DNA of 64,000 bases, taken from assembly GCA_041650895.1 (NCBI GenBank), contig JBAZKF010000001.1, positions 145,685 through 209,684 on the forward strand. Direction: 5' to 3'. This document shows positions 3,742-64,000 of the stretch, one piece after another (the stretch's first letter is position 1; each line of letters opens with the position of its first letter). Position numbers and translations under genes: made by a program. Source of the stretch: Patescibacteria group bacterium (GTDB taxonomy: Bacteria > Patescibacteriota > Patescibacteriia > 2-01-FULL-39-33). The notes beneath the pieces are model-generated. The model was not told the origin of the DNA. It did not search any database and saw nothing but the letters and a program-made list of their open reading frames with translations.

Positions 3742-3742
3742 T

Positions 3743-21367: not shown

Positions 21368-21370
21368 AAG

Positions 21371-22411: not shown

Positions 22412-22524
22412 ACAGTTAAAAGTTACAAATTACTAATTACTTAATTAATTCAATCAAATACGTTACTGCCTTAATCTAATATTCACTCCCTTATATTATA
22501 CCACAAAATAATAACCCCAGACAA

Positions 22525-22968: not shown

Positions 22969-22980
22969 TAACTTTATTCC

Positions 22981-23008
22981 ATTATAACACAAATCAAATT
23001 AAGTCAAA
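22981..23008 (-). promoter_or_regulatory. Putative promoter of the GtrA-like gene (divergent pair)
   Basis: On the minus strand: TTTGAC (23008-23003), a 16-nt spacer, then the extended -10 TGtTATAAT (22989-22981). The leader would be very short. Confidence 0.45.
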
Positions 23009-23039: not shown

Positions 23040-23062
23040 TAGTTCTGTAATTGATTAATATT

Positions 23063-29251: not shown

Positions 29252-29254
29252 AAC

Positions 29255-33488: not shown

Positions 33489-33497
33489 AATTTAGAG

Positions 33498-34586: not shown

Positions 34587-34589
34587 AAA

Positions 34590-35546: not shown

Positions 35547-35550
35547 AAAA

Positions 35551-36975: not shown

Positions 36976-36983
36976 AATAATAA

Positions 36984-38213: not shown

Positions 38214-38216
38214 AGT

Positions 38217-39551: not shown

Positions 39552-39561
39552 TGTTTTAATA

Positions 39562-41058: not shown

Positions 41059-41096
41059 GAATATTTAAAAATTATAAAACCGATTTAATGTGTTTA

Positions 41097-41125
41097 ATTA
41101 TAACAGAAAATACACAATTAATCAA
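41097..41125 (-). promoter_or_regulatory. Candidate internal promoter in the only sizeable gap (63 nt) of the minus-strand array
   Basis: On the minus strand: TTGATT (41125-41120, overlapping the GT9 stop), a 17-nt spacer, then the extended -10 TGtTATAAT (41105-41097). A second TATAAT lies at 41076-41071. Confidence 0.4.
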
Positions 41126-43670: not shown

Positions 43671-43671
43671 A

Positions 43672-45021: not shown

Positions 45022-45034
45022 TTTATCGATTAAG

Positions 45035-47599: not shown

Positions 47600-47610
47600 A
47601 GTATTTTCTG

Positions 47611-49050: not shown

Positions 49051-49068
49051 AATAGAAAATACTAAAAA

Positions 49069-49764
49069 TTAAAAACGATATTTAATCAGGGTCCAAATAG
49101 CAATTAAACCGTCGCGAAGTTTTATCTTTTTACCTTCTTCTTGCGAGCGGGGAATATAGGAAATCGGCACTTCATGAATCTTAACGCCCTGCCGAGAAAT
49201 CTTGGCTGTTATTTCCGGACAGAATTCAAAACCCTTGGCTTCAATATTTATCTTATCCAAAACTTGTTTGCTGACCATTTTATAGCAAGTCGCCTCATCT
49301 GTTATGGCAGTGCCGTAAAGAAAATTAGTCAACCAAGTCAGATAGACTCCACCCAAATAATAAAACCAGCCGGCCTTAGGACTTTTCTTTCTGGTCAATC
49401 CTAAACGCCTAGAACCATAAACCGCTTGAGCGCCGCATTCTTCTGCTTCATTTATCAATCTTTTCAGATCATTGGGATTATATTCTAAATCAGCATCCTG
49501 AACGACAGCATAATCGCCGGTTGACACTTTGTAACCGGCAGCTACGGCCGCGCCCTTGCCTTGATTTTCAGGCAGATGGATAATGATATATTTATCCTGA
49601 TAGCGATCAAGCACTTCTCGGGAATTATCGGTGGAACCGTCATTGACTATAATAATTTCTTTGTTAACGCCTAAATCAGCTTCCGACAATTTTTGTAAAA
49701 TAGCCCCGATGGTTTTTGCTTCGTTGTAGGCCGGAATAACAATGGAAAGTTTATTGATTTTCAT
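49069..49764 (-). CDS. Glycosyltransferase family 2, polyprenyl-phosphate sugar synthase-like (231 aa, paralogue of 57163..57858)
   Basis: LSIVIPAYNEAKTI, IIVNDGSTDNS, NQGKGAAVAAG, VQDADLEYNP, and C-terminal EEGKKIKLRDGLIAIWTLIKY. Confidence 0.85.
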   Translation of the reverse strand: MKINKLSIVIPAYNEAKTIGAILQKLSEADLGVNKEIIIVNDGSTDNSREVLDRYQDKYIIIHLPENQGKGAAVAAGYKVSTGDYAVVQDADLEYNPNDLKRLINEAEECGAQAVYGSRRLGLTRKKSPKAGWFYYLGGVYLTWLTNFLYGTAITDEATCYKMVSKQVLDKINIEAKGFEFCPEITAKISRQGVKIHEVPISYIPRSQEEGKKIKLRDGLIAIWTLIKYRF

Positions 49765-49768
49765 AATA

Positions 49769-50425
49769 TTATTTCTTTTTGCAAACTAAATAATAACCGC
49801 TAGTTAAAATGCCATTTTCCGGCCGGGAATGCCTGATATCGCCGAACTCACTCTTTATCGGCGAAGGCAGCCAAACCAATAATTTAACTAATAAAAATAA
49901 CGGGATTTTCATTAAGCGACCGCCGAATAAATTGGCTTGAAAACCTATTCTTTGTAATAAAGCGGCCAAAGTATCCTTAGTTGACAACTCATTGCGCAAT
50001 TCGATTATTTCCCAGCCGTCACTAAATAAAAACCTTAGGCCATACTTGGTAAAACGATAGTAATCATTGGGAATATCATGAAGAGGAAAAATAAACCTGG
50101 TAGTCAAAAGCAACACTCCGCCTGATTTCAGGACTCTTTTCATCTCGGCGACGGCTAAGTGAGGCGAATGCAAATGCTCCAGCAATTCAGTACATAAAAT
50201 CAGATCGAATTTATCATCGGTAAAAGGCAACTGATGAGCGTCGCCCACCACATCAACATTAATCCCCGGCCGATGGTCAAAACCGATGCGGTTGGGAAAT
50301 AAACTTTTGTAAGAACCGTCACCACAACCCAAATCAAGCACCAATTTTTCCGTTGACTGGTACTGGGCGATGAAAGCATCGATTTTTTTTCTGGTTATTT
50401 TGGCAGTTAGAAATTCTTTAATCAT
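49769..50425 (-). CDS. Class I SAM-dependent methyltransferase
   Basis: 218 aa. VLDLGCGDGSY, FDLILCTELLEHL, LKSGGVLLLTT. Confidence 0.8.
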   Translation of the reverse strand: MIKEFLTAKITRKKIDAFIAQYQSTEKLVLDLGCGDGSYKSLFPNRIGFDHRPGINVDVVGDAHQLPFTDDKFDLILCTELLEHLHSPHLAVAEMKRVLKSGGVLLLTTRFIFPLHDIPNDYYRFTKYGLRFLFSDGWEIIELRNELSTKDTLAALLQRIGFQANLFGGRLMKIPLFLLVKLLVWLPSPIKSEFGDIRHSRPENGILTSGYYLVCKKK

Positions 50426-50434
50426 TTTTGCCGT

Positions 50435-51553
50435 TTATGAATTAATGAAAGAGACGATTTTTTCAGCGCGCTTCTTCCAAGTATATTTTTCCGCATCGCT
50501 CCGGGCGCAACGAGAGATATTCTCGGCTAATTGCCGTTGCGTCAAAGCCCGGTTAATGCCCGCCGCTAAAAGATCAGAATTATCCGGCTCAACTAAAATA
50601 GCATTATTATCATTTAAAATTTCCCTCAAAGAAGGCAAATTAGAAGCGACTATAGGTACGCCACTGGCTAAATATTCAAAAAGTTTAAGCGGTGAAGTAT
50701 AAAATTGCGATATTTTTTCCTGCCCGGAATTAGGCAAAACCAAAACATCAGCGGCCTTCAGATAGAACGGGATTTGCTTATGCGGCTGATGGCCGAGAAT
50801 TAAGACATTAGCGCTATTGACATTTTTTTTCTTAAAAGCTTCAACATCTTCCTTAGTACCGCCGATAAAAACAACCAGGGATTCATTAGACAGATACCGG
50901 GCGGCTTCAGCCAAAACCTGCGCTCCTTTCCAACCATAAAGATGGCCGGTGTAAACAATCAATTTTTTATCCAACGGCAAATTAATTTTTTTCCTGGACT
51001 CCGTGGCGGTAATATTCAGATCAAACTCAGCCAAATCAACGCCATCGGGAGCAATTAATATTTTATCAGCAGCGATTCCGTTGCTGGCCAGAGCGGATTT
51101 AATAAAATCAGTCAGAACAACAATCCGTTGAAAACACCGCCAAAAAAGACGATGATACGATTTGATTGTTGCAGGCAAGGAGTGAAGTTCCAAAAAAGAC
51201 GATTTAAAAAATAAGCCGAACTGTTCTTCGCGTGTATATATAATATCATACTCCCTGAAAGACACGTAGATTCTGCTGGCTAACAAAAAAGTTGCAGTCG
51301 CCAGCCAAAAAGCCAGATTACCAATTGTTTTATCCAAAAAAATCAAATCTAAACAGGGTAATTCGGTAATCTTAAAATTAGCCGGTAAACCGTAATAGTT
51401 GAAGGGATCGGCTTTAAGATTATTAGAACGCCGCGGTACCACCAATTCAACTTGATGACCCAAAACAGAGAAAGTCTCGCACATTTTCATGATTTGCCAG
51501 CCATGAGCCTTCTCGGTCGGTATTCTGATGTTTGCCAAATAAATTATTTTCAT
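50435..51553 (-). CDS. Glycosyltransferase family 4
   Basis: ATG 51553 (MKIIYLANIRIPTEKAHGWQI) forms an ATGA overlap with the upstream stop. C-terminal KLFEYLASGVPIVASN...EILNDNNAILVEP. Confidence 0.85.
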   Translation of the reverse strand: MKIIYLANIRIPTEKAHGWQIMKMCETFSVLGHQVELVVPRRSNNLKADPFNYYGLPANFKITELPCLDLIFLDKTIGNLAFWLATATFLLASRIYVSFREYDIIYTREEQFGLFFKSSFLELHSLPATIKSYHRLFWRCFQRIVVLTDFIKSALASNGIAADKILIAPDGVDLAEFDLNITATESRKKINLPLDKKLIVYTGHLYGWKGAQVLAEAARYLSNESLVVFIGGTKEDVEAFKKKNVNSANVLILGHQPHKQIPFYLKAADVLVLPNSGQEKISQFYTSPLKLFEYLASGVPIVASNLPSLREILNDNNAILVEPDNSDLLAAGINRALTQRQLAENISRCARSDAEKYTWKKRAEKIVSFINS

Positions 51554-53709
51554 TTTTTTGTTTTTACTAAATAACACATTTGATGGCCGAACATATTAGG
51601 CCAAATATCTTTAAGACGAAAACCATTAGACGATTTAAATCTAACAACATCTAGACCCAAATCATTCAGCCAAATCAAAAAATCCTTATGGCTCCAAAAC
51701 CGCAGGTGTTCTGACGGATGTGTCATCCATTGGGTAAAAAATCTTCCTCCAAACATTAAGCCGAAACGATAACGGTAAAAAGCGGAATTAGGAACTGAAA
51801 TTGCCAAATAGTCGGCATTATCTTTTATTTTAGAGATTAAATCCTCGGGATATTTGATGTGTTCCAAAACCTCTGAAATCACAATGTAATCATATCGGTC
51901 GTCCAAATTAAAATCAGCGCTCTCGATATCGGCTTTTACTCCGTCAATGCCGGCTTGCTTTAAGTTATTGATTACTAATCCGGAAATATCCAAACCACTG
52001 ACCCGGCAACCCTTCTTTTCTTTTAATTCATAAGGCAGACGCGAACTGCCACAGCCAAGATCCAGAATTTTAGCTCCGGGCTTAATCCAATCCATAAAAA
52101 TCACTTCCCTTTCCATTAATTTGCTACGCATCTTGAAGCCGCGCTCTGACCAATACTGATCATAATCAAGTTGTTTGGTGATATTTTTGAAATCAGGGCG
52201 ACGCGTACCCTCAAAGAAGAACGATTTCGAGACGCGAGCTATGATTTTGTCAAAATAATACTTAAGCGCGCGCTTGACTTTGAATAATATAAAATCTAAA
52301 CGCTCTTTTTTGTTACCCAACTTAAGCCAGATTTTTGCCAGCTTCAAAAAGTGGGTTAAGCCTCTCTTTTTTACGCCCTCAAATATCTCCTGACGCCAAC
52401 TCTCAAATAATTTTCCCAACTCCTGGGAATCACTGACGCCAGAACGATTGAATTTGTCCTGGCTTTGGAAAAAAGAGAAATTACAATAATCGGAGGTATT
52501 GATACGACCCTTAAAAAAATCATTAAAAAGCTTCGTCCCTGGCAGGGCGGTAAAGATACTGAAAGAATAATGATCAGCTTTGATTTTCTTGGCGAATTCA
52601 AAGGTTTGCCGCATTTCTTCTTTAGTTTCGCCGGGCAGGCCGATCATAAAGCCGGCTTCGCGACGGATGCCGTGTTTCCGGCAAAGTTCCAGGGCTTTTT
52701 CCACATCGGATAATTTTATCCTTTTATTAATGATTTCATCTAAAACGCGCTGATTACCCGATTCAACGCCAAAATCAAGCTGTAAACAGCCACTTTCGGC
52801 CATTAACTTGATGATTTCTTCATTAACCAAATCCACTCGCGATTGAGCCCCCCAATACAGACCGGCTTCCTTCATAATCTGGCAAACCTTCCTAACATGA
52901 TCGTAATTAGCCGTTAAGGTATCATCAGCAAACCAAATTCCTTCAACGCCATATTTATCCCTTAAAAGATAGATTTCTTTTTTGATGTTTTCCAAACTGC
53001 GATAACGCACCTGACGCCCAAAAACCTGATTGCAGGCGCAAAAAGTGCAGCTGTAGGGACAGCCCCGGGAAGCCATAACCATCACCGCTTTCATAGGGAT
53101 GCCTCGGATAATATCGTCCCAGATCTTAGTATAGTAGGTCATATTCACCTTATCATAAGCCGGCAAGCTTAAATCAGTCAGATCCATATACTCCCGCCGT
53201 TCATTGATGACAACTTCATTATTCTGATCCGGCCAGGCGATGCCCTTCACCTTCCTTAGATCGGGCGACTCCTGCTGTAATTCCTTAATTAATTCAAAAG
53301 TAGTTTGTTCGCCTTCGCCGATAATGGCGGCATCAAAGCCGGAATTAACTACGCCAATCGGATCGGCTGTAGCTTGAGGCCCGCCGATAATCGAAAAAAC
53401 TTTGAGTTCTTTTTTAATCCTCTGATTCATTTCCACAGCTTCGGCAATTTCCATGGTCGTGGCAGTAAAACCGATTACTTGCGGCTTAAACTCTAAAACA
53501 GCCTTAATGATCTCCTCCTTGGCTCTTTCACGATTATCGTATTGATAGCCTCTGTCCGCGAATATTTTCCCGTCGATAATCAAATTATCAAAACCATGAT
53601 CCCGCAAATATCCGGAAATATACATCAAACCCAAAGAATAACGATGCTCCTTGAGCCGTTTAGGGGGAAGAATAAAAATCAAATCTTTATCTTGGCTAAT
53701 TTTTATCAT
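51550..53709 (-). CDS. Fusion protein: B12-binding-domain radical SAM (paralogue rS8) + C-terminal class I SAM methyltransferase domain
   Basis: 719 aa. IIGGPQATADP...IIGEGEQTT and SRGCPYSCTFC are followed, from about residue 520, by KILDLGCGSSRLPYEL...YDYIVISEVLEHI (methyltransferase motifs I-III). Confidence 0.85.
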   Translation of the reverse strand: MIKISQDKDLIFILPPKRLKEHRYSLGLMYISGYLRDHGFDNLIIDGKIFADRGYQYDNRERAKEEIIKAVLEFKPQVIGFTATTMEIAEAVEMNQRIKKELKVFSIIGGPQATADPIGVVNSGFDAAIIGEGEQTTFELIKELQQESPDLRKVKGIAWPDQNNEVVINERREYMDLTDLSLPAYDKVNMTYYTKIWDDIIRGIPMKAVMVMASRGCPYSCTFCACNQVFGRQVRYRSLENIKKEIYLLRDKYGVEGIWFADDTLTANYDHVRKVCQIMKEAGLYWGAQSRVDLVNEEIIKLMAESGCLQLDFGVESGNQRVLDEIINKRIKLSDVEKALELCRKHGIRREAGFMIGLPGETKEEMRQTFEFAKKIKADHYSFSIFTALPGTKLFNDFFKGRINTSDYCNFSFFQSQDKFNRSGVSDSQELGKLFESWRQEIFEGVKKRGLTHFLKLAKIWLKLGNKKERLDFILFKVKRALKYYFDKIIARVSKSFFFEGTRRPDFKNITKQLDYDQYWSERGFKMRSKLMEREVIFMDWIKPGAKILDLGCGSSRLPYELKEKKGCRVSGLDISGLVINNLKQAGIDGVKADIESADFNLDDRYDYIVISEVLEHIKYPEDLISKIKDNADYLAISVPNSAFYRYRFGLMFGGRFFTQWMTHPSEHLRFWSHKDFLIWLNDLGLDVVRFKSSNGFRLKDIWPNMFGHQMCYLVKTKK

Positions 53710-54775
53710 ATTTGTTTTTGGGGCCTAATAACTCTTCAATAAGACCGCCATCTAACAATTGTTTGACTAAAATTTCCGGCCGGCATAATCGGCAATAAAT
53801 CTCATAACCATTATCGGCGATTTTTTCATAATTTATTCTACCCTCTTTCAGCGCTAAGATTTTAGACGCCAAATCCTGGGCATCGGCCAAACGGCAAAAA
53901 ACCGCATCTTGGCCGTCCGTAAGCAATTCCCTGATAGCCGAAGAATCACCGGTCAAAACCGGCCGCTTGGCCGCTAAGCCCTCATAAACCTTATTAGGGA
54001 TAACTCTTTTAGCTTTATCAGTATGGCCGAATATACCTAGGCAAACATCAGCCTCCGCCAAATAGCCCCTTAAATTATCAATGGACACGGGCTCTATAAA
54101 ATTAACATTACTGACTTTAAGCCGGCTCGCCAAGTCAATTATTTCCCGGTAAGTCTGACCGTGGCCGATAATATTAAATTTGATATTTTCCCCCTCTAGA
54201 ATTTTCGTCGCTTCAATAATATACTCTATGCCCTGTAAAGGAATAAAACTGCCATGAAAATGAACCAAAAAATAATCTTTTTTCTTAGGAGTAATAGGAA
54301 AAATAACCTTATCATCACAACCGACTAAAACCCGATAAAACTTTTTTCTCTCCAACTTTAATTCTTTTACAAAATAGTCAATCTGGGCATTGGTATCCAA
54401 TAAAATTTTATCCGCCAAACGGCAGGATAACCAATCCAATAACCAGTAATACCTTCCTTTAAGGCTTTGCGCTTTAACGATTTTCCTATCTTCAACCATG
54501 GAATCAAAAAAAGAGTAAAAAGCGTCAAAAACAATCGGTTTAACGGTTAAAAGCCTGGCCAAAATCATGGCCTGAAACCCCGGAAAACCAACGATCATAA
54601 TATCATATTTCTTACGGATTGACCAGTGTTTTTTAATTAAATCCCAATACTTCAACGGCCCTTTGACGCTTGTTCGGCATTCAATCACATCAACGCCGTT
54701 TAACTTAAAACCGCCAAGCAAAATCCTATTGCGGCTATAATCAGGATCATAAATTCCGAAATAACAAATAATCAT
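53696..54775 (-). CDS. Glycosyltransferase family 4-like (GT-B)
   Basis: 359 aa. MIICYFGIYDPDYSRNRILLGG at the N-terminus and C-terminal PNKVYEGLAAKRPVLTGDS...LLTDGQDAVF. Confidence 0.75.
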   Translation of the reverse strand: MIICYFGIYDPDYSRNRILLGGFKLNGVDVIECRTSVKGPLKYWDLIKKHWSIRKKYDIMIVGFPGFQAMILARLLTVKPIVFDAFYSFFDSMVEDRKIVKAQSLKGRYYWLLDWLSCRLADKILLDTNAQIDYFVKELKLERKKFYRVLVGCDDKVIFPITPKKKDYFLVHFHGSFIPLQGIEYIIEATKILEGENIKFNIIGHGQTYREIIDLASRLKVSNVNFIEPVSIDNLRGYLAEADVCLGIFGHTDKAKRVIPNKVYEGLAAKRPVLTGDSSAIRELLTDGQDAVFCRLADAQDLASKILALKEGRINYEKIADNGYEIYCRLCRPEILVKQLLDGGLIEELLGPKNKYDKN

Positions 54776-54779
54776 AATA

Positions 54780-55514
54780 TTATAGTTTGCCGAATTTAAT
54801 CATGGCTCTGAATTGAACCGGGCTGACGGCAGAATCGACGGCATTGCGTTTGAGCAACCATCGGTCGCTCTTAGGTCTGACAACGCCCTTAGCCACAGTC
54901 AAAGCCGCCTTAAAGCCGCTAGCTTTCAGTAACCCAATGATTTGCTGGTTATAGCGACCATAGGGATAGGCAAAATAAGACACCGGTTTGCAATATTCCC
55001 GTTCAATGAAGGCTTTGGACTCGATAATTTCCTGCCTAGCCTCAGTCAAACTGATTTTAGTCAGCTTGGCATGGCTGACGGTGTGGGGTTCAAAATCAAT
55101 CAAACCGGAAGCGGCCATCTCCGAAACCTGATCCTTGTCCAACAATGGCAGATCAATAGACGGCAAACCGGTCGCTAAAAAAATCGTAGCGGGAAAATTA
55201 TATTTTTTCAATAAAGGAAAAGCTATGGAATAATTGTCTGTATAACCGTCATCAAAAGTAATGGCGACTGTCCGAGGTGGAATTTTACCTGCCGTAAGAT
55301 AGTCCAATAATGCAGACAAAGAAACAATATTATATCGCTGTTGTTTCAGATAAGCCAACTGAGCTGAAAAATCCTGGGACTCAACGGTGAAAAATCTGCC
55401 ATTATCGCCTACGGAATGATACATCAAAATAACTGCGCGATTAGGCAGGGCGGGGAGAAAGGCCAGTAAGCTAGATAAAATATTTTTTAAAAAAAACTTA
55501 ATTCTCTTCGCCAT
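54780..55514 (-). CDS. Polysaccharide deacetylase (NodB homology domain)
   Basis: 244 aa. AITFDDGYTDNY (TFDD), FPATIFLATG, EPHTVSHAKL (HxxxH), YFAYPYGRYN. Confidence 0.85.
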   Translation of the reverse strand: MAKRIKFFLKNILSSLLAFLPALPNRAVILMYHSVGDNGRFFTVESQDFSAQLAYLKQQRYNIVSLSALLDYLTAGKIPPRTVAITFDDGYTDNYSIAFPLLKKYNFPATIFLATGLPSIDLPLLDKDQVSEMAASGLIDFEPHTVSHAKLTKISLTEARQEIIESKAFIEREYCKPVSYFAYPYGRYNQQIIGLLKASGFKAALTVAKGVVRPKSDRWLLKRNAVDSAVSPVQFRAMIKFGKL

Positions 55515-56589
55515 AGGCTTTTTTGATATTAACGACTAAATTTTTAATACTATAAGAAGCTACGACAATGCGACGCAACTCAACAGCCATAACCTGCTTC
55601 TCGGATGAATCCAATTCAGACAATTTCTTTATTTTGACCGCCAATTCCCGACTGTCAGCTTTTTCCAATAATAACAAATCTTGGTAGTCGCCCAGGATCA
55701 CGGAAAAAGTTTGATTATAAACTACGGCCGGCACGCCACAGGCCAACGATTCCAAAACCACTTTGTCCAATCCCCCGGTGGGGCACAAGTTAATGCTTAA
55801 ATCGGCTTGCTGATAATAATAAGGCAGGTCCTTATTGGGGATATTGCCTATCCAATCAATATAATCTTCCAGTCGGCGTTTTTTTATTTCCTCTTTCAAT
55901 AAGGCAGCGTATCTCAAACCATCAAGATTCGGCGGTGAGCCGATAAAAGACAAGGTGATATTTTTTATTCCTAATTCATGCACCAAAATATCAACAGCTT
56001 TAATCAATAATAATTGATTTTTTATTTCGCTGATCCGGCCGACGCTGACGATTTGTAATTTATCCTGTCGAGCCGTCGCCCAATCTTTAAGACAGAATTT
56101 ATCAATATCAATGCCATGGCCGACGATTTTCACTTTGGCACTAGCAAGCCGGAAACTTTCGGGCGAGGCGGTAAAAATAATATCAGCCAACAATTCAGCT
56201 AATCTTAATTTAAAATTAACCGCTTTATGCGCATACCAGAGGCCGATAATTTTGCCCTGCAAACGCCAGATCAAACCAGCCAGAATGACATAAACAACAT
56301 TCATGTGAACAAAAACAGCATCATAATCATGGCGAACCAACCATAAATATTTATAAAAACGCCACAAGTAACGCCAACGCGACGGCCTGTCTTCCTTGCC
56401 CAAAGATAAAACCCTGACATTGGCAGGCAAATCATACTTACCTTTATATAGGCAGATAACAGTCACTTGAGAAAAATTATTGGCAAACTCTTTAAGCCAA
56501 TCATGAAAAAATCCCAACAGACCGTCGGCGTCATCCACTTTCTGAGTCAAGATTAATAATTTCAATTTTTTATTTTTTGGCAATGGCAT
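55498..56589 (-). CDS. Glycosyltransferase family 4
   Basis: 363 aa. GT-B C-terminal half with GRISEIKNQ, GGLDKVVLESLACGVPAVV. Confidence 0.8.
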   Translation of the reverse strand: MPLPKNKKLKLLILTQKVDDADGLLGFFHDWLKEFANNFSQVTVICLYKGKYDLPANVRVLSLGKEDRPSRWRYLWRFYKYLWLVRHDYDAVFVHMNVVYVILAGLIWRLQGKIIGLWYAHKAVNFKLRLAELLADIIFTASPESFRLASAKVKIVGHGIDIDKFCLKDWATARQDKLQIVSVGRISEIKNQLLLIKAVDILVHELGIKNITLSFIGSPPNLDGLRYAALLKEEIKKRRLEDYIDWIGNIPNKDLPYYYQQADLSINLCPTGGLDKVVLESLACGVPAVVYNQTFSVILGDYQDLLLLEKADSRELAVKIKKLSELDSSEKQVMAVELRRIVVASYSIKNLVVNIKKAYGEEN

Positions 56590-57172
56590 ATAAATTCAAA
56601 CCTAATTCGAAGCTGCCGCCGGTGATTTTATCGGCCGCAAAGCCGGTGGCGGAAAACTGTTTAAATAATTCCTGTCGACTATAGAACTGCTGATGCTCAC
56701 CGATCTCATCCGGTGAAACTATTTTAAACGCGGCCAATAACGACAGCAGACCCTTAGTTTTTCCCCAGGGAGTCGTCACTATAAGCAACCCGCCGGGAAC
56801 AAGCGCTCGATAAGATTGAGCCAGAATATTTAAAGCCGCGGTTTCATCCAAATGTTCCAAAACTGCCAGCATGGTTACAACATTAAAACAACTGGGACTG
56901 ACCGGCAAATTATCGCCGGTTTTGAATTCGTATTTTTTTAAGCTAACTCCGTCGATCATTCCTTCGCTGACCGATTTATCCAATCCGACTTTGGCCGAAA
57001 ACTTAACCTGCGCCAAAAAATAAGGATAAGAACCGCAGCCGATATCAAGAATAGCTCCCGACCTTAAATCAGCAGGAATCAACCTGTCAACTTTATTAGC
57101 CCGACGCCGGGCCAAGTATTTCTCTAAGACGCCATACCCCCTGGTAGGAGCGGCGGAACCGGTTATTTCCAT
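56570..57172 (-). CDS. Class I SAM-dependent methyltransferase
   Basis: 200 aa. ILDIGCGSYPY, FNVVTMLAVLEHL, LVPGGLLIVTTP. Confidence 0.8.
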   Translation of the reverse strand: MEITGSAAPTRGYGVLEKYLARRRANKVDRLIPADLRSGAILDIGCGSYPYFLAQVKFSAKVGLDKSVSEGMIDGVSLKKYEFKTGDNLPVSPSCFNVVTMLAVLEHLDETAALNILAQSYRALVPGGLLIVTTPWGKTKGLLSLLAAFKIVSPDEIGEHQQFYSRQELFKQFSATGFAADKITGGSFELGLNLYAIAKK

Positions 57173-57858
57173 AAGTTAAACTTAATAATATACCAAATCG
57201 CCGCCAAACCATCTTTCCAGCTTATTTTCTTGCCCTCTTCATAAGTGCGGCCGGCATAAGAAATACCGACTTCATAAATCCGGAATTTACCCCTGGCTAT
57301 CAGGGCGGTAATCTCCGGTTCAACGCCGAATCGATTGGCAGTCAGGCGAGTTTTCAGATAATCAATAACCGGACGATTGAACGCCTTATAGCAAGTCTCC
57401 ATATCTGTTAAGGTCAAATTACTCATAATATTGGAAAAAATAGTCAAAAAAGTATTACCCAGATAATGCCAAAAAAAGAAAACACGGTGAGGTTTGCTGG
57501 TAATGAAACGAGAACCATAAACAACATCAGCCTTGCCGTCAATTATCGGCCCCAATATTTCCTGGTACTCTTGCGGATTGTATTCTAAGTCAGCGTCTTG
57601 AATAATCAATAGATCGCCGGTTGCCACATTAAGGCCACGTTTGATGGCCGAGCCTTTGCCCTCGTTCTTATCCTTTAGAATTACGACGCATTTATCCCGC
57701 GGGCTTGAAATAATATCTCTAGTGCCGTCGGTGGAACCATCATCAATAATAATAATTTCCTTCTCTACGCCGGCAAGCGGCGCTGCCTCCACCTGGCGCA
57801 GTAGTTCCAAGATAGTTTTATGTTCATTATAGACTGGTATGATAACTGACAATTTCAT
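57163..57858 (-). CDS. Glycosyltransferase family 2, polyprenyl-phosphate sugar synthase-like (231 aa, paralogue of 49069..49764)
   Basis: LSVIIPVYNEHKTI, IIIDDGSTDGT, NEGKGSAIKRG, IQDADLEYNP, and C-terminal EEGKKISWKDGLAAIWYIIKF. Confidence 0.85.
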   Translation of the reverse strand: MKLSVIIPVYNEHKTILELLRQVEAAPLAGVEKEIIIIDDGSTDGTRDIISSPRDKCVVILKDKNEGKGSAIKRGLNVATGDLLIIQDADLEYNPQEYQEILGPIIDGKADVVYGSRFITSKPHRVFFFWHYLGNTFLTIFSNIMSNLTLTDMETCYKAFNRPVIDYLKTRLTANRFGVEPEITALIARGKFRIYEVGISYAGRTYEEGKKISWKDGLAAIWYIIKFNLWK

Positions 57859-57873
57859 AAAAATAATTAATAT

Positions 57874-59346
57874 TTAATCGCGTTTAGTATTGATGTCCGG
57901 AGATTTAGGCAAGAAAAAAGAGACTAAAGCCATAAAACCATCAAACAAAATTTTTATATCGTCTAATGATCTAATGCTAAAAATCTTCTTAAGGATGAAT
58001 TTCGGACGAAAATAAAAACTGCGATACATGATTTTATATAAATTCTTTATTTCTTCCGCTGAAAGATTCTCCAATCTCATAACCGGCTTAGCCAAATTAA
58101 AATCATCCCAATTTTCGCTCAACAACAAATCACGTTCCTTGGCCCAATTAAACATGGCCGTGCCGGGAAACGGCGTAGTAATATTGACGATCAGCAAATC
58201 GGGATTTATTTTCTTAACAAAACGGATGTTCTTTTCAATCACTTGGCGACTGTCGCCGGGATTGCCGACCATGAAAGCCAGACGGCATTCTATCCCCGCC
58301 TGCTTAGTCCATTTGACGGCATTGATCACTTGCGGCAAATTGATTTTTTTATTGATATTCTTCAATACGGCCTCATCAACATTTTCCACCCCATACATGA
58401 TCTGATGACAACCGGCGTCTGACATTTTCCGCAACATGGCCTCGTCAACATAATCAACTCGGGCAAAACACGTCCAAGACAAATCCATTTTATTTTTTAT
58501 CAGCAGATCGCACAAGTCAATGACGTTCTGACGAAAAACAGTAAAAGTATCATCATAAAACATGATCTGCCTGATACCGTAATTATCGGCCAAGTATTTT
58601 ATCTCGGCAAAAATCCCGGTGGCCGACTTAAAGATCATCTGATCACCCAAGGTTTTATTGCAGAAAGTGCAACGCCCCGGACAACCTCGGCTAGTCATTA
58701 AACTCATGGCCGGCAACTTCTTATACGAGCCCTTAGCCGGCCGATATTTATCAATCGGCAATAAATCATAAGCCGGCAAAGGCAGATCATCCAAATTGGC
58801 AATCCGCCGACGCGGCGCGTTACGGATTATTTGTTTTTCGCCATTCAATTCTTTCTTATAAACCACGCCGTCAATCTCTTCAATCTTCTTGCCGGATAAT
58901 ATTTCTCCCAAAGTAATCTCCCCTTCGCCGATAACCACCGCATCAACAAATGGTTGATTAATAACCTCATCAGTAACAAAGGTTGCATGAACGCCACCGA
59001 AAATAATCAAAGCATTAGGATAATATAATCGGCAAATTTCCGCCGCCTGATAAGCCTTTTTAATTTGTCCGGTGGTGGCAGTAAAGCCGATCACTCTAAT
59101 ATCCCTGTGATGATCAACAAAATTTTCCTTTAGATAATCGCCGAAGGCCTGGACCGAGGGGCAGGAAACTTCACAATCAATTATCTCTACACTTTGATCC
59201 TGTTGACGGACATAGCCGGCAATGGAAGCCAGCCCCAAAGGAGGGAAATTTGAGTTAATCTCACGCCAAATATTATTCTCATCGCCATAATAATCAGGCG
59301 GAGCGATCAACAAACAATCCAAATTTTTTTGATTATCTTGCGACAT
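57874..59346 (-). CDS. B12-binding-domain radical SAM enzyme (class B), paralogue rS9
   Basis: 490 aa. IFGGVHATFVT...VIGEGEITL, SRGCPGRCTFC, C-terminal MYRSFYFRPKFILKKI. Confidence 0.9.
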   Translation of the reverse strand: MSQDNQKNLDCLLIAPPDYYGDENNIWREINSNFPPLGLASIAGYVRQQDQSVEIIDCEVSCPSVQAFGDYLKENFVDHHRDIRVIGFTATTGQIKKAYQAAEICRLYYPNALIIFGGVHATFVTDEVINQPFVDAVVIGEGEITLGEILSGKKIEEIDGVVYKKELNGEKQIIRNAPRRRIANLDDLPLPAYDLLPIDKYRPAKGSYKKLPAMSLMTSRGCPGRCTFCNKTLGDQMIFKSATGIFAEIKYLADNYGIRQIMFYDDTFTVFRQNVIDLCDLLIKNKMDLSWTCFARVDYVDEAMLRKMSDAGCHQIMYGVENVDEAVLKNINKKINLPQVINAVKWTKQAGIECRLAFMVGNPGDSRQVIEKNIRFVKKINPDLLIVNITTPFPGTAMFNWAKERDLLLSENWDDFNLAKPVMRLENLSAEEIKNLYKIMYRSFYFRPKFILKKIFSIRSLDDIKILFDGFMALVSFFLPKSPDINTKRD

Positions 59347-59351
59347 AGCTT

Positions 59352-61559
59352 TTAAAGGAATCGACTAAAAAACGCTCTGAATCCGTCACTGGTCAACAAC
59401 CATAAATAGTCAACCAAAACAATAACGATAACGACCGCAACCCGACTCGGCCAGCGGTAAAAATATTTTCTTAACCCGTTAACGGCCAACAAGGTTAATA
59501 GCAAAGCCAGGACAAAATACAAACGAGATGACACACCGGTCCAAAGCAAAAACATAAACGACGGCAGAATCAGGCACTTAACCAGGAACCTCTGATCGGC
59601 GGTAAACTCCCGCCATTTAATCAATCCTAACGGCACCAAAAGCCAAGCAGCCAGATAAACGCCGACGATACTCTTAACAACAAAAAACGGCTGATATTCG
59701 GAACCGCTGGGAGCGCTAATGCCCAGTTTATACCAATCCAAATATGAATAATGATAAATGAAATAAACCACGATTTGCCAAGCGATTAAGGGCAAGCCGA
59801 CCGCTAAGGTTGATAAAAATAATTTTTTGAGTTTTTCGGCTCGAGGCAGTTGCGGATGGAAACATATCACCAGATACAGGAAAGCCATACCCAAACTGCT
59901 ATATTCTTTCCATAACATGCCAACAACAACCATCAACGAAGTTAAAAATAAATTAAAGTTGTTAGGCCGTTTATAAAATCTAATGACGCCGATAGCGGCC
60001 AAAACCCAGAATAATTGGGCGCCCGACTCGGTAAACAAATCCAAGCCATACTTAAGTAACGGATAGGAAGAAATATAAATCAACGCTCCCAGAAGCGCCA
60101 TTCCTCTATTTTTAAAAAACAAATAAAATAAAACGTAAACGGCTAAAGCCAAAAAAACATAAAATATAATCGCCTCTATCTCAAAAGCTAACGATAGATT
60201 GCCACCGGTTAAAAACGACAGTCCGGCAATACCCATAGGCCCCAACGGTTTTAAAATTCTGGAAGGAAAACTCTCCGCCATTTGTCCCATAAACAGCTTA
60301 GCCGTTTCCATATACTGATAAGCATCGCCGTTAATGCTAAAACCGACAAAATTGAGCCGAATAAACACGTTCAACGCTACCGCGGTTAAGATTAAAAGAA
60401 TCGGCCAAAAATGATTATTGGTCGACTTGGTCGGCCGGCACTTTTTGTCTATGGCTGTTTGCCAGCTTTTCAGATAAAGCGCCAAATTTTCCTCTCGGCC
60501 GGGCAAAATGTTAATCGCCGATTCGGCCGACTGGCTGAGTTGCCGGCGCAAGCCAATATTCTGAATAATCTTTTTCATGGCGTCAGCTAATTTTTCTTCG
60601 TCGCCAACGGGCGTGATTAATGCGCTGACTCCGTCTTTCAACACCTCACCGGCGCAACCGACATCAGTCATCACTACCGCCAAACCGCAACTGGCGGCTT
60701 CTATTATCACCATCCCCCAACCCTCATAATCAGAACTCAAAACATAACTATCGGCTGAGTTGTAATAATCATAAATATTGTCAGTCCAACCGATCAAAAA
60801 GATTTTATCCTCCAAGCCGGATTCTTTTATTTGTTGGGCGAGTTTGTCTTTTTCCGGACCGCGACCGACTATAAGCAAAACCGCCTCCGGCAATTGCCGG
60901 GCAACCGTGGCGAAAGCTCTGATCAGCAACGGCAGATTTTTCTGTTTTACCAATCGAGCCATAGTCAAAAAAACAGTTTTGCCGACTAAGCGGCCGAAAA
61001 TCTCCGGCTTAGTTTCGCTGAATTGCTTCTCGGGCTTAACATAGACAGGAACAACAACAATTTTATCTTCGGCTATATGCAAATCATTAACCAAAGTATC
61101 CTTTATCCGCTCACTGACTGCGCGCACGCTGTCGGCTCGCTTAATCAGCCAGCGCCCCAGATAATAACGGCAAAAGTTAATAGGATTTTCATTGCGCCAA
61201 TAAGTCGCGCTAAAAAAATCGCCATGTTCCTGAATATTCAAAGCGCTCTTGAATTTCCTAGCCAGCAATAATCCCATCAGCGACAATTCAAAAGGATCTT
61301 GAACCGTTATGACATCATAATTATTCTGGCGGAACAGTTTTTTCGCTAACCGATACATATTGAATAGTGCCGCTAATCGGTTGCCGCCACCCGTGCCGTA
61401 AGCCGTTACTTTTTCTGATAATTTAATTTCTTGCGCTGGCGTAGCGGGCACGATAATATCATAAGCGTCCGTCATAACGCCATACTCAATCAAACGCCGA
61501 GTTACGGGTGATGAGGAAACGAATACGCCTTTATCGGTGCCTAAGTTTAATACTTTCAT
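59352..61559 (-). CDS. Fusion protein: N-terminal GT4 glycosyltransferase + C-terminal polytopic membrane (GT-C-like) domain
   Basis: 735 aa. Residues 1 to about 370 are GT-B (KQKNLPLLIRAF...SDYEGWGMVIIEAASCGLAVVMTDVG). Residues from about 385 onward are about 11 TM helices, starting at NHFWPILLILTAVALNVFIRL...INGDAYQYMETAKL. Confidence 0.8.
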   Translation of the reverse strand: MKVLNLGTDKGVFVSSSPVTRRLIEYGVMTDAYDIIVPATPAQEIKLSEKVTAYGTGGGNRLAALFNMYRLAKKLFRQNNYDVITVQDPFELSLMGLLLARKFKSALNIQEHGDFFSATYWRNENPINFCRYYLGRWLIKRADSVRAVSERIKDTLVNDLHIAEDKIVVVPVYVKPEKQFSETKPEIFGRLVGKTVFLTMARLVKQKNLPLLIRAFATVARQLPEAVLLIVGRGPEKDKLAQQIKESGLEDKIFLIGWTDNIYDYYNSADSYVLSSDYEGWGMVIIEAASCGLAVVMTDVGCAGEVLKDGVSALITPVGDEEKLADAMKKIIQNIGLRRQLSQSAESAINILPGREENLALYLKSWQTAIDKKCRPTKSTNNHFWPILLILTAVALNVFIRLNFVGFSINGDAYQYMETAKLFMGQMAESFPSRILKPLGPMGIAGLSFLTGGNLSLAFEIEAIIFYVFLALAVYVLFYLFFKNRGMALLGALIYISSYPLLKYGLDLFTESGAQLFWVLAAIGVIRFYKRPNNFNLFLTSLMVVVGMLWKEYSSLGMAFLYLVICFHPQLPRAEKLKKLFLSTLAVGLPLIAWQIVVYFIYHYSYLDWYKLGISAPSGSEYQPFFVVKSIVGVYLAAWLLVPLGLIKWREFTADQRFLVKCLILPSFMFLLWTGVSSRLYFVLALLLTLLAVNGLRKYFYRWPSRVAVVIVIVLVDYLWLLTSDGFRAFFSRFL

Positions 61560-61567
61560 CTCAATAA

Positions 61568-63013
61568 TTATTTAGTAATAAATTTCTTGGCCAATTTAAA
61601 TTCCACCGGCCAGAAAAAAAATTTCAATTTCCAACGCAGTTTACATAAACAAATAAAACAGAATTTGAGTAATTTATTGGAAGAGACAGTTGAATTCATC
61701 GCGCTCTTGAATGACAAGGCGCCGAATCTGACATAGGCCTCCATTGATTCCACAAAGTCCTTGTCCTTAACCCAAGGAAAATTCTCTACTGACATGTAGC
61801 TCAACTCGTTCTCTGAAACCTTTTTCCATTCCTCAAGCGACTGCGGTTCCCGCCAGCCGGCCTTGACGCATTCCTCATATAACTCTGATCCGGGGTAGGG
61901 GCGAAACGCTTGAGGGCCCAAAATCTGGACCTCGTCGCTTAAGGCGATTAAGCGATCAATCAACCTCAGGGTTTCCTGCATATCACTCCGCGACTCGCCA
62001 GGCAAACCAATCATGAATGAATACTGAGGTATGATGCCATGCTTGAGGCAGGCCTTAGCGGAAGCGACTATGTCATCGGCGGTAACGTCTTTTTTGATCA
62101 TTTTTAAGATACGGCTACTGCCGGATTCGGCGCCGAAAGACAACAAATAACAGCCGGACTGCTTTAACTTGGCTAAAAGTTCATCATCCACCATCCCCGG
62201 CTTAAGGTAATCGGCGCGAATAGTGGTTTCCCAAGGCAAAACCAGATCTTCCCTAATCATGCCGTCAATGATCGCCTTAGCGCGGCTGATATCCACAAAA
62301 AAGTTCTCGTCCCAAAAACGCAATTTCTTGCCCTGGAAATACTCCTTGGCCTTAATTATCCGTAAATCCTCAAGCACCTGCTCGGTCGTCCGAGCGCGCC
62401 AATGATTTTTCAAAATCGCATTAATGCAAAAAGTACAACGATGCGGACAACCGCGCGAAGTTAGAGAAGGAATCAAATATAGATGCTCTCTGATTTCCTG
62501 AGGCACTAAATCCCAATTAAATAACGGCATGGCTTGGGGTTGATGCAGGGGTTGCGGCTGATTGACAATAACTCTCCCGTCAGCGCAATAAGCGAGGCCT
62601 TTGATTTCTGCCAGGGATCGGCCTCGCGCCAACTGCAACATGGTTTCTTCGCCTTCGCCGATAACTACTATATCAATCAGCGGATTTTTGGCTGTCTGCT
62701 CAATAAAAAAAGTCGGATGCGATCCGCCCCAAACAATTTGGGCGGCGGGATTGATTCTTCTGGCCAACTCGGAGATTTTCAAGGCATTGGAGATCTGCAT
62801 GGTCATAACTGAAACACCGATCAAATCAAAATCCTTAATCGCTTGCTCCAATAAGCTCAAATAATCCTTCTGCCTGACGCCGTCTATCATCTTGACCTCC
62901 ACTCCTTGACTATCTAAGTAGGTGGCAATACTCAACAAACCGACAGAAATAGAGCTGTCGTAATTATCTTTAACTATATTAAATTCGGGATTGATCAGTA
63001 AAACTTTTTTCAT
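61568..63013 (-). CDS. B12-binding-domain radical SAM enzyme (class B), paralogue rS10
   Basis: 481 aa. VWGGSHPTFFI...VIGEGEETM and SRGCPHRCTFC. Confidence 0.9.
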   Translation of the reverse strand: MKKVLLINPEFNIVKDNYDSSISVGLLSIATYLDSQGVEVKMIDGVRQKDYLSLLEQAIKDFDLIGVSVMTMQISNALKISELARRINPAAQIVWGGSHPTFFIEQTAKNPLIDIVVIGEGEETMLQLARGRSLAEIKGLAYCADGRVIVNQPQPLHQPQAMPLFNWDLVPQEIREHLYLIPSLTSRGCPHRCTFCINAILKNHWRARTTEQVLEDLRIIKAKEYFQGKKLRFWDENFFVDISRAKAIIDGMIREDLVLPWETTIRADYLKPGMVDDELLAKLKQSGCYLLSFGAESGSSRILKMIKKDVTADDIVASAKACLKHGIIPQYSFMIGLPGESRSDMQETLRLIDRLIALSDEVQILGPQAFRPYPGSELYEECVKAGWREPQSLEEWKKVSENELSYMSVENFPWVKDKDFVESMEAYVRFGALSFKSAMNSTVSSNKLLKFCFICLCKLRWKLKFFFWPVEFKLAKKFITK

Positions 63014-64000
63014 TGCATTTTTTTCAATAAATCAACGGTTTGATCCACTGTCTGCCGCCAAGAAAAATCTTTCAGCTTGACTGTTGCCGCTTCGGTCAGC
63101 TTTTGAGCCAAAGGACGGTCAGTCAATAGTCGGAAAATCGCTTCAATTAATTGTTTTTGATTATTGTAGTTTACCAGCAAGCCGTTCTGGCCGTCTGTAA
63201 TAACCTCGGGATTGCCGCCGACGTCAGTGGCGATTACCGGCGCCCCGGCTTTTATGGCTTCCAATAATGTATGGGACAGGCCTTCATAATTGGTGTTTAA
63301 AACAAAAACATCGGCGTGACTGAAATATTCCAAAACTTTTTCATGCGGTACGCGATCAAGAAACTTTATTTGCTCGGCCAGTTTCAAAGACTGAGCCAGG
63401 TTCTGCAGATTCTCTAACTCCGGACCATCGCCCAAAACGATCAAATAGGCCCGACCCAAACGCTTGATGATTTCCGGCATCGCCCGGATTAATTGATCCA
63501 CGCCCTTCCATTTGGTTAACCGGCAAGCCGTCATAATTATGGAACCGTCGTTAGGCAGATTAATGGGGGCTGATTTATTAACGCTAACCTCATCGCCAAA
63601 ATCAATCGCATTATATATGACATTTATTTTGGCTAAGTCAACGCCGATCAGCTTGGCCAAATCGCCCATAAAATTGCTGACGGCAATAATCGCATCGGCT
63701 TCCAATAATATCCGGCGGCGACGCGCTTTCATTCTTTCAATTTGTTGATTATAAATATTCTTTTCAAAGTCGGTGATGTAATCGGTTGTCCAGCCGTTAG
63801 CGGTGGCTGTTTCCCAGGCGGCATCGCCGGCAAACCTGACTAAATATTTTTTCTTGGTTATTTTTTTTATCAAATTGGCAAACCAGCCGACACTGTAGAT
63901 ATCGGTTACATAAATCAGGTCGGCGTTAAAAGACAGGAAAAGCATAGCCAAAAAATAATGCAACCGACTGAAAACTTTATTTTTTGCCACTCGATAAACG
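63010..64000 (-). CDS. Glycosyltransferase family 4 (5' end probably beyond the right window edge)
   Basis: The track starts it at GTG 63990, but the frame stays open to position 64000 and the N-terminal Rossmann half looks about 70 aa short. C-terminal NYEGLSHTLLEAIKAGAPVIATDVGGNPEVITDGQNGLLV (EX7E). It has an ATGA overlap with rS10. Confidence 0.75.
   Translation of the reverse strand, partial: VYRVAKNKVFSRLHYFLAMLFLSFNADLIYVTDIYSVGWFANLIKKITKKKYLVRFAGDAAWETATANGWTTDYITDFEKNIYNQQIERMKARRRRILLEADAIIAVSNFMGDLAKLIGVDLAKINVIYNAIDFGDEVSVNKSAPINLPNDGSIIMTACRLTKWKGVDQLIRAMPEIIKRLGRAYLIVLGDGPELENLQNLAQSLKLAEQIKFLDRVPHEKVLEYFSHADVFVLNTNYEGLSHTLLEAIKAGAPVIATDVGGNPEVITDGQNGLLVNYNNQKQLIEAIFRLLTDRPLAQKLTEAATVKLKDFSWRQTVDQTVDLLKKMQ

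Follow-up and report, generated by a model that had tools for sequence, protein, structure and literature searches.

The gene at 59352..61559 of the window (the whole stretch of Patescibacteria DNA that was analysed, 64,000 nucleotides) probably codes for a glycosyltransferase with two functions, one on each side of the membrane, that belongs to a pathway for a cell-surface glycan of Patescibacteria (CPR); the steps by which it would work are set out below. On the best reading of the sequence, its membrane half would be a GT-C enzyme of the "multi-component transmembrane glycosylation" type, using a polyprenyl-phosphate sugar and joined in one chain to a cytoplasmic GT4 that serves the same pathway. 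Both parts are of known kinds; their fusion is rare and unstudied, and a search of the literature on fused GT-B/GT-C proteins found no description of a GT4::GT-C fusion. The protein is built from the following parts.

59352..61559, minus strand: GT4::GT-C fusion open reading frame, 735 aa plus stop, single and uninterrupted
60441..61559, minus strand: GT-B/GT4 domain of retaining type, residues 1-373, predicted to be cytoplasmic (Pfam, BshA similarity, Foldseek, DSSP)
60699..60725, minus strand: EX7E motif of the GT4 domain, E279-x7-E287, invariant in the five fused orthologs
60411..60440, minus strand: interdomain linker, residues 374-383, short, basic, poorly conserved and of variable length
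59355..60410, minus strand: minimal GT-C-fold domain, residues 384-735, with 11 predicted TM helices, N-terminus inside and no soluble extracytoplasmic domain

The N-terminal GT4 domain

By sequence and by predicted structure, residues 1-373 make up an entire GT4/GT-B enzyme, retaining by family. Both of its Pfam domains exceed their gathering thresholds, Glyco_transf_4 over residues 49-174 (52.0 bits against a cutoff of 28.5) and Glycos_transf_1 over residues 184-346 (138.9 bits against 26.4), and E279 and E287 are in place. The AF2 model of residues 1-373 (pLDDT about 92) has the full GT-B fold, with two Rossmann halves and cross-over helices running to about residue 373. The closest solved sequence is BshA (5.8e-23), and PimA is found among both the sequence and the fold matches. 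Moreover, comparison with the complete enzymes MshA and BshA by Foldseek gave target-normalised TM scores of 0.75-0.81 over about 380 columns. The complete GT4 enzyme with an EX7E motif that had been proposed in a preliminary description of this DNA is thus borne out.

Reality and conservation of the fusion

The GT4::GT-C fusion is real and conserved. Full-length fused orthologs exist at 88, 82, 50, and 44% identity (n = 4), and comparison with the 82% ortholog gives dN/dS values of 0.09 (GT4 part) and 0.08 (GT-C part). Both halves are under purifying selection as judged from these sequences. An identical protein is listed at NCBI under the title "MAG: glycosyltransferase [Patescibacteria group bacterium]", and the gene lies 8 nt from its upstream neighbour and 5 nt from its downstream one. 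The linker is fast-evolving (pN 0.37) and carries indels in the orthologs, of 3 aa in P0023 and an insertion of about 27 aa in P0035, all of them in frame. The full-length AF2 model (pTM 0.66) gives no sign of a fixed interface between the two domains. No in-frame ATG occurs between residues 340 and 416; alternative in-frame starts are TTG at 352 and 359, in the final helices of the GT4 domain, and, in TM1, TTG/GTG at 396/398. A separate internal start for the GT-C part would have only such TTG or GTG codons at its disposal, and it is not needed.

A unique or artefactual fusion was entertained when the first word-indexed search with the membrane half returned stand-alone proteins only, without a self-match. 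The idea was dropped after exhaustive profile and full-length searches recovered the exact protein and the four fused orthologs. That the fusion arose by assembly error or frameshift, or that its GT-C part is a catalytically dead scaffold comparable to PIG-U, is extremely improbable. The artefact is refuted by the five independent sequences that share the fusion and show in-frame indels in the linker; against a dead scaffold stand the dN/dS of 0.08 and the invariance of D412 and of basic residues across 23 family members.

The C-terminal GT-C domain

From the sequence, the C-terminal half has about 10-11 hydrophobic segments. The model of this half (pLDDT about 91) resolves them into 11 TM helices, in keeping with the GT4 fused to a membrane domain of about 11 helices that had been described earlier. 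The modelled fold is unambiguously GT-C: all significant fold matches are GT-C-fold proteins, as structure prediction and Foldseek, suggested as a check at the outset, made plain. As in GT-C_A enzymes, the domain is polytopic, its TM core is conserved, and its first outer loop contains two juxtamembrane helices. Its topology fits the positive-inside pattern, with the conserved residues facing outward.

60198..60344, minus strand: first extracytoplasmic loop, residues 406-454, with juxtamembrane helices 411-423 and 439-448
59523..60041, minus strand: further conserved outward-facing residues, from the family alignment

The first loop contains the invariant residues D412, Y416, R434, K437, and P438. 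The acidic motif INGDAYQYMETAKL, earlier likened to those in the first loop of GT-C enzymes, is real, and its D412 and Y416 are unchanged in 23 of 23 family members. D412 (codon 60324..60326) is a conserved acidic residue at the N-terminal tip of helix 411-423, the position described for the catalytic Asp of GT-C_A enzymes at the tip of JM1 (PMC12041525). In the model it is a candidate catalytic base, equated with the known Asp by loop and helix position rather than by residue-level superposition on ArnT or PimE. Elsewhere, K551/E552 (LWKEY), Y606 (YSYLDWY), W673, and S677-S678-R679 (VSSRL) are invariant or nearly so across the family, and D507 and E511 are constant only within the set of five fused orthologs. 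In the predicted structure, the loops that carry D412, Y416, R434, K437, K551/E552, and R679 are all on the face opposite the GT4 domain.

Sequence comparison places the domain less directly. Run against Pfam and NCBIfam, the membrane half gave no match reaching threshold, and PDB sequence searches with the single sequence or the family profile gave none; the fold comparison alone succeeded. Of the families proposed at the outset for comparison (Wzy_C, PMT_2, DUF2079, DUF2142, and EpsG), only PMT_2 (PF13231) was matched at E<=1, by 16 of 23 homologs (best 1.1e-10), with 0 of 23 matching any of the other four. The window domain itself has no PMT_2 match at E<=1, and its 88% ortholog P0023 reaches 20.8 bits against the gathering threshold of 26.1 bits. 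By sequence, the domain is therefore a peripheral relative of PMT_2 and no formal member; no match to a family foreign to glycan handling appeared. Additionally, the family profile did not detect the window's membrane proteins of 611, 620, and 854 aa. A literature search on PMT_2 together with Glycos_transf_2 turned up a single paper, on the human TMTC enzymes.

A GT-C family across Patescibacteria

The GT-C domain belongs to a family that counts about 1,300 representatives when grouped at 50% identity. Nearly all come from Patescibacteria, and their annotation is either "hypothetical" or a generic "glycosyltransferase"; a literature search found nothing on GT-C enzymes in Patescibacteria. The usual form is a stand-alone protein of about 360 aa. 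Since about 85% of full-length representatives stand alone and only 3 of 132 carry GT4, the latter is not an obligate partner.

Other partners, a short GT2 and GtrA, recur more often. GT2 is fused to the family GT-C in at least six representatives, with fusions including GT2::GT-C (P0101, P0121, P0138, P0128), GT2::GtrA::GT-C (P0112), and GT2::GT4::GT4::GT-C (P0027), and GtrA::GT-C fusions are found in P0018 and others. In a neighbourhood census of 16 independent loci, a GT2 homolog adjoins the GT-C gene in 15, and 10 have GtrA beside it or fused to it. Furthermore, 8 independent loci have a methyltransferase gene after the GT-C/GT2 pair.

Neighbouring genes and the glycan locus

The genes of the window that bear on the function of the fusion protein are as follows.

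56570..57172, minus strand: SAM-dependent methyltransferase, 200 aa, of the kind recurrent after the GT-C/GT2 pair
57163..57858, minus strand: partner GT2 (Pfam GT2), 231 aa, no TM segment, two genes downstream of the fusion gene
57874..59346, minus strand: B12-binding radical SAM enzyme between the fusion gene and GT2, position kept in orthologous loci
61568..63013, minus strand: B12-binding radical SAM enzyme directly upstream of the fusion gene, position kept in orthologous loci and in locus L010
63010..63990, minus strand: upstream GT4 ("GT4a"), truncated by the window end
22525..22992, minus strand: GtrA-family protein, 155 aa (tblastn; PF04138, E=1.3e-32, 112.9 bits)
23051..24400, plus strand: Bac_transf initiating phosphoglycosyl transferase, same locus
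38217..39551, minus strand: Wzx-like (Polysacc_synt) flippase, same locus, not adjacent to the fusion gene

Gene order around the fusion is conserved down to orthologs at 50% identity, and a canonical GT2 is kept beside every fused ortholog. The best NCBIfam matches of the partner GT2 are AglJ, ArnC, PgfS, PpgS, and Dol-P hexose transferase, all below cutoff. It is 38-41% identical to the GT2 domains fused to the family GT-C, and the GT2s of the window reach 38-47% identity with the GT2 domains of family fusions. It is a putative polyprenyl-phosphate sugar synthase that would make the lipid-linked donor of the GT-C, so that such a synthase appears to be encoded together with the GT-C, as in multi-component systems. 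The flippase of such systems, of GtrA or Wzx type, has counterparts of both types in the window. GtrA is not adjacent to the fusion gene: it lies 37 kb away, on the margin of the glycan locus they share, and is a candidate flippase for the polyprenyl-phosphate sugar. GT4a occurs elsewhere in tandem fusions with relatives of the present GT4 domain (P0169, P0170, P0175, P0176, P0027). A literature search joining CPR, B12 radical SAM, and glycosyltransferase found nothing.

The preliminary description had the fusion link cytoplasmic, nucleotide-sugar-dependent glycosylation to a membrane-embedded step, and the presence of GT4 and a predicted GT-C in one chain agrees with this. It had further suggested that the membrane step could be one such as translocation, polymerisation, or ligation. 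A Wzy-type polymerase, an O-antigen/WaaL-type ligase, or a translocase is now largely refuted and has very little probability left. Polymerisation is known for some GT-C enzymes, and Wzy_C is absent from the window ORFs scanned, as had been said of polymerases and ligases in the locus. However, this absence does not extend to the orthologous locus of Buchananbacteria, where the gene of a 746-aa Wzy_C protein lies upstream of the target gene, at a distance of about 6 kb and about 3.4 kb past the last cluster gene. From synteny, we infer that a Wzy_C gene would lie just past window coordinate 64000. A Wzy_C protein also adjoins some stand-alone family members. None of the 23 members matches Wzy_C or EpsG, the fold matches listed for the membrane domain include no Wzy or WaaL structure, and the window already has Wzx and GtrA flippases. 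Because the conserved partners are GtrA and a GT2 resembling polyprenyl-phosphate-sugar synthases, extracytoplasmic transfer from a lipid-phosphate sugar is proposed instead.

Proposed mechanism and alternatives

In the proposed mechanism, the 231-aa GT2 would load a sugar on polyprenyl phosphate at the cytoplasmic side, and the product would be flipped by the GtrA-type or the Wzx-type flippase. On the outer face, the GT-C domain would then transfer the sugar to an acceptor, D412 serving as catalytic base, by the logic of GtrABC, CsbB-GtcA-YfhO, GacIJKL, and ArnC/ArnT. A membrane-anchored, lipid-linked acceptor is favoured because the domain has no soluble outer part. Before flipping, the GT4, which TM1 would keep at the inner face, would add a nucleotide-sugar residue to the same glycan; this glycan is probably lipid-linked and may be initiated by the Bac_transf enzyme of the locus. 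Thus, one polypeptide would be active both before and after translocation. From the fusion and synteny only, we infer that GT4 and GT-C may act on the same substrate.

The two domains might be co-localised and yet serve different molecules, with the GT-C glycosylating an extracytoplasmic protein or wall polymer (as do PMT, YfhO, and GacL) and doubling as an anchor for a GT4 that has another substrate at the cytoplasmic face. This is unlikely, as the same GT4 clade is repeatedly and independently fused to lipid-sugar machinery: PMT_2-type GT-C domains of other subfamilies (P0177, P0180-P0182), GtrA (P0178), and GT2+GT4+GT-C. The conserved gene order also argues against it, and so does the lack of a soluble acceptor-binding domain, which sets this GT-C apart from PMT, PglB, AftD, and YfhO.

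Alternatively, the GT4 itself could make the lipid-linked donor, as an unprecedented retaining GT4 synthase of polyprenyl-phosphate (or other lipid) sugars feeding the GT-C. It occupies the same N-terminal place as GT2 in the GT2::GT-C fusions, and its relative P0178 is fused to GtrA, an architecture typical of donor synthases of the GtrB/DPMS type. However, no characterised GT4 enzyme is known to make polyprenyl-monophosphate sugars, the canonical GT2 is retained beside every fused ortholog, and P0027 has a GT2 plus two GT4s in one protein; this alternative is decidedly improbable. The statement that the protein either carries out two consecutive transfers on one lipid-linked glycan from opposite faces or, more radically, has in its GT4 a new retaining lipid-phosphate-sugar synthase feeding the fused GT-C, is regarded as rather unlikely.

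Comparison with known systems

The preferred reading, in which a GT-C using a polyprenyl-phosphate sugar shares one chain with a GT4 from its own pathway, has parallels in several systems. In the eukaryotic lipid-linked oligosaccharide pathway, ALG2 and ALG11 (GT4) act at the cytosolic face, followed by ALG3, ALG9, and ALG12 (GT-C, luminal, using Dol-P-Man), with DPM1 as the GT2. There, too, GT4 steps precede translocation in the ER and GT-C steps follow it, whereas the present protein is bacterial, fused, and only 10-13% identical in sequence. The mycobacterial PIM/LM pathway likewise has GT4 enzymes at the cytoplasmic face (PimA, PimB), then small GT-C enzymes at the outer face (PimE/MptA/MptB), and a GT2 (Ppm1) supplying polyprenyl-phosphate mannose (PMC12041525, PMC3485146). 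PimE is a minimal GT-C of 383 aa with a lipid-anchored acceptor and its catalytic Asp at the JM1 tip (PMC12041525).

Multi-component (three-component) transmembrane glycosylation is represented by GtrA/GtrB/GtrC, CsbB/GtcA/YfhO, GtlA/GtcA/GtlB, GacI/J/K/L, and ArnC/ArnT (PMC8035078, PMC11127046, PMC7389260). These systems combine a cytoplasmic GT2, a GtrA- or Wzx-type flippase, and an outward-facing GT-C, and the same parts are adjacent or fused in the present family. By comparison, the GT-C here is far smaller, at about 350 aa, and lacks a soluble outer domain; a cytoplasmic GT4 is fused in addition, of which PMC8035078 and PMC11127046 make no mention; and methyltransferase and B12-radical-SAM genes are interleaved. 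Compared with PMT_2 proteins, protein O-mannosyltransferases, and ArnT, the domain has no MIR or periplasmic domains, and it shares no detectable sequence similarity with solved GT-C enzymes.

Significance

Patescibacteria are uncultured bacteria with reduced genomes, and next to nothing is known of the chemistry of their envelopes. A CPR-wide family without functional annotation now gains a proposed role, that of a minimal GT-C partnered by a GT2 donor synthase and a GtrA flippase, on the evidence of Rosetta-stone fusions and synteny. No current concept is overturned by the fusion. Nevertheless, GT4::GT-C would be a compact natural case of glycosyltransferase sites on both sides of a membrane, usable for studies of the coupling between steps before and after flipping, and for structural work the GT-C domain, at about 350 aa, makes an attractive minimal model. 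If the two-transfer or the GT4-synthase reading holds true, this CPR-specific family would mark the smallest functional GT-C core and offer an entry point to a Patescibacteria surface glycan heavily modified by radical SAM enzymes.

Reality of the fusion

59352..61559, minus strand: fused protein, residues 1-373 GT4 and 384-735 membrane domain

This gene is a single unbroken open reading frame of 735 aa, lying 8 nt from the upstream radical SAM gene and 5 nt from the downstream one. On sequence and model, its N-terminal half is a GT4 enzyme: residues 184-346 match Pfam Glycos_transf_1 (138.9 bits) and residues 49-174 Glyco_transf_4 (52 bits), both far over cutoff, the EX7E motif reads E279...E287, and the full-length AlphaFold model (pLDDT 91.6) has a complete GT-B fold to about residue 373. 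This half superposes on MshA and BshA (target-normalised TM 0.75-0.81), and its nearest solved sequences are BshA, TarM, Gtf1, SdgB and PimA. That the fusion is real is settled. Because an initial search using just the membrane half recovered stand-alone proteins of 343-373 aa but not the query itself, an artefact was considered; it was ruled out by exhaustive profile and full-length searches. An identical protein is already in NCBI ('MAG: glycosyltransferase [Patescibacteria group bacterium]'), and the target has fused full-length orthologs that are 88%, 82% (Candidatus Buchananbacteria), 50% and 44% identical to it. Both domains are conserved in the ortholog alignment, with variation confined to a 10-residue linker, whose length changes (an indel of 3 aa, an insertion of ~27 aa) all stay in frame. 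Compared with the 82% ortholog, the GT4 has a dN/dS of 0.09 and the membrane domain one of 0.08.

The membrane domain

The C-terminal half contains 10-11 hydrophobic segments, and predicted models have 11 TM helices. The preliminary description of the open reading frame, the complete GT4 with EX7E and an ~11-TM domain is correct on every factual point according to Pfam and the models, and the GT-C resemblance that it saw is borne out. The domain has no direct match in Pfam, NCBIfam or PDB sequences; PMT_2 (PF13231) is matched by 16 of 23 homologs. In the structure search proposed there, the predicted model (pLDDT 90.9, pTM 0.88) gave GT-C-fold proteins at all Foldseek ranks from 1 to 34, and its fold is unambiguously GT-C. 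A role in translocation, Wzy polymerisation or ligation had been envisaged as well and is unsupported; among the profiles named for comparison only PMT_2 was found, with Wzy_C, EpsG, DUF2079 and DUF2142 matching 0 of the 23 homologs.

When TM1 is oriented inside to outside, the predicted inside loops have a K+R density of 27% and the outside loops one of 9%. Among 36 family residues that are invariant or nearly so, this topology puts 21 in outside loops and 0 in inside loops. The invariant D412, the Asp of the INGDAYQY motif, lies, in the model, at the N-terminal tip of juxtamembrane helix 1 (411-423), which is where the PimE study puts the catalytic Asp of PimE, ALG6, ArnT and PglB (PMC12041525). 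Invariant R434, K437, K551 and R679 are candidate donor-phosphate binders. At about 350 aa and without a soluble outer domain, this minimal GT-C is smaller than either PimE or ALG3.

Family distribution and partner genes

The family profile found 1,292 representatives at a threshold of E<=1e-3, falling to 164 at E<=1e-30. In species-representative genomes, 9 of 10 matches are from Patescibacteria (Buchananbacteria, Lloydbacteria, Kaiserbacteria, Adlerbacteria and Paceibacterota).

Table. Architectures among 132 full-length representatives of the GT-C family
Stand-alone: 112
GT2 fusion: about 9
GtrA fusion: at least 4
GT2::GtrA::GT-C: 1
Carrying GT4: 3

Across 16 independent loci, a homolog of the window's 231-aa GT2 adjoins the GT-C in 15, the 16th contig stopping soon after the gene, and GtrA is fused to or adjoins the GT-C in 10. 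The window's two 231-aa GT2s share 38-47% full-length identity with the GT2 domains fused to the family; their best NCBIfam matches, all under equivalog cutoffs, are the polyprenyl- or dolichyl-phosphate sugar synthases AglJ, ArnC, PgfS and PpgS. A bona fide GtrA is encoded in the window (22525..22992, 112.9 bits). Such GT2/GtrA partnering is the signature of multi-component transmembrane glycosylation systems (PMC8035078, PMC11127046, PMC7389260).

A third possible polyprenyl-phosphate-sugar module occupies the locus edge, divergently beside the Bac_transf initiating enzyme (23051..24400). In 8 of the 16 loci (the window, L001, L002, L011-L013, L015 and L016), the GT-C/GT2 pair is additionally followed by a SAM methyltransferase of about 200 aa. 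Conservation of this triad suggests that a sugar or lipid intermediate is methylated.

20705..22992, minus strand: GtrA (155 aa), NAD-dependent epimerase/dehydratase (346 aa) and short GT2 (220 aa)
56570..57172, minus strand: methyltransferase of the triad, weak best match UbiG-like

Proposed pathway placement of the GT4

63010..63990, minus strand: upstream GT4 (GT4a), cut by the window end

The order GT4a, radical SAM, GT4::GT-C, radical SAM, GT2, methyltransferase is kept in the 82% and 50% ortholog loci, and the same parts occur unfused in locus L010. L010 (CAZGKM010000017.1) is labelled 'uncultured Gammaproteobacteria bacterium' and runs GT2, GT-C, GtrA, GT4a, B12-radical SAM and GT4b (a target-type GT4); this CPR-type set is 45-67% identical to the window proteins, a case of either mis-binning or horizontal transfer.

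Related fusions vary. P0027 reads GT2, GT4a-like, target-GT4-like, GT-C; P0169, P0170, P0175 and P0176 are GT4a-GT4b tandems; and P0178 is target-GT4-like::GtrA. Since the target's GT4 clade is fused in P0177 and P0180 to GT-C domains unrecognised by the family profile, its fusions arose more than once. P0181/P0182 (about 1153 aa) are GT4 - GT-C - GT4 'sandwiches' whose N-terminal GT4 resembles the target's; the middle is another PMT_2 GT-C, and the C-terminal GT4 is 35-37% identical to window 55498..56589.

From this we infer that the GT4 shares a pathway with the GT-C domain. It would act at the inner face, in the simplest case on the lipid-linked glycan that the GT-C also works on, prior to its flipping. 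A Bac_transf initiating enzyme and a Wzx-like flippase are likewise encoded in the window. The proposed GT4-then-GT-C sequence resembles PimA/PimB then PimE, and ALG2/ALG11 then ALG3/9/12. Most family members are without GT4, and the full-length model (pTM 0.66) indicates no fixed GT4/GT-C interface.

Polymerase candidates

The view that the locus has no recognisable polymerase or ligase holds within the window, where Wzy_C was absent from the 53 scanned of 54 ORFs of at least 150 aa, but not for the Buchananbacteria ortholog locus, in which the gene for a 746-aa Wzy_C protein lies about 6 kb upstream of the target ortholog. By synteny, the window's counterpart would sit just past its end. Wzy_C(-TPR) genes also lie near stand-alone family members. 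The large Wzy_C proteins (about 730-746 aa) that recur near the GT-C/GT2 module probably serve these CPR glycan pathways as polymerase or ligase; TPR matches in L001 and L002 are all faint, and MurB and SecA follow the gene in two of the loci.

L001, 10439..12655: large Wzy_C protein
L002, 13450..15639: large Wzy_C protein
L003 (Buchananbacteria), 1759..3999: large Wzy_C protein

The preliminary description also named a 611-aa protein, which has no Pfam or NCBIfam match and only 'hypothetical' Patescibacteria homologs. It has an acidic motif (AEAENFILARNL) directly after TM1, adjoins an LPG_synthase_TM protein (30679..31653), and may be either a polymerase or a further divergent GT-C.

31653..33488, minus strand: 611-aa polytopic protein, ~10 hydrophobic segments and a C-terminal soluble part
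6758..8620, minus strand: unassigned 620-aa polytopic membrane protein near the glycan locus, about 13 hydrophobic segments, no Pfam match

Radical SAM genes and significance

On both strands of 27833..63013, radical SAM genes alternate singly with genes for GT4, GT2 and GT9 enzymes, deacetylases and methyltransferases; about a dozen of them are B12-binding (class B) and two lack the B12 domain. Four of the proteins were examined and are nearest, far under cutoffs, to the HpnJ, BchE, ApyD, AprD4 and P-methyltransferase families. These features suggest that sugars or a glycan undergo extensive radical chemistry; a literature search found nothing on CPR B12 radical SAM enzymes with glycosyltransferases.

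51550..53709, minus strand: 719-aa B12-radical-SAM and MetW-like SAM methyltransferase fusion, position kept in L003 (17841..20000)
45035..47599, minus strand: second GT-C fusion, 854 aa, N-terminal PMT_2 membrane domain (residues 67-218 match PF13231), C-terminal radical SAM and SPASM
47611..49050, 49069..49764 and 49769..50425: B12-radical SAM, 231-aa GT2 and methyltransferase, a second module just upstream of the 854-aa fusion

No account of such a GT-C/radical SAM fusion was found in the literature. As listed, the 854-aa ORF overlaps ORF 43672..45207 (minus strand) by 173 nt; the GTG start assigned to the latter, a 511-aa radical SAM ORF, probably lies upstream of the true one. With its interleaved B12-radical-SAM genes and second GT-C fused to radical-SAM/SPASM, the surrounding locus is arguably stranger than the target, whose domains and pathway logic are of known kinds and which is already deposited under a generic name. 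The novelty lies in the rare, conserved two-sided GT4::GT-C architecture, of which literature searches found no description, and in a CPR-wide family of minimal GT-C enzymes that, by fusions and synteny, would belong to a GT2/GtrA-coupled system.
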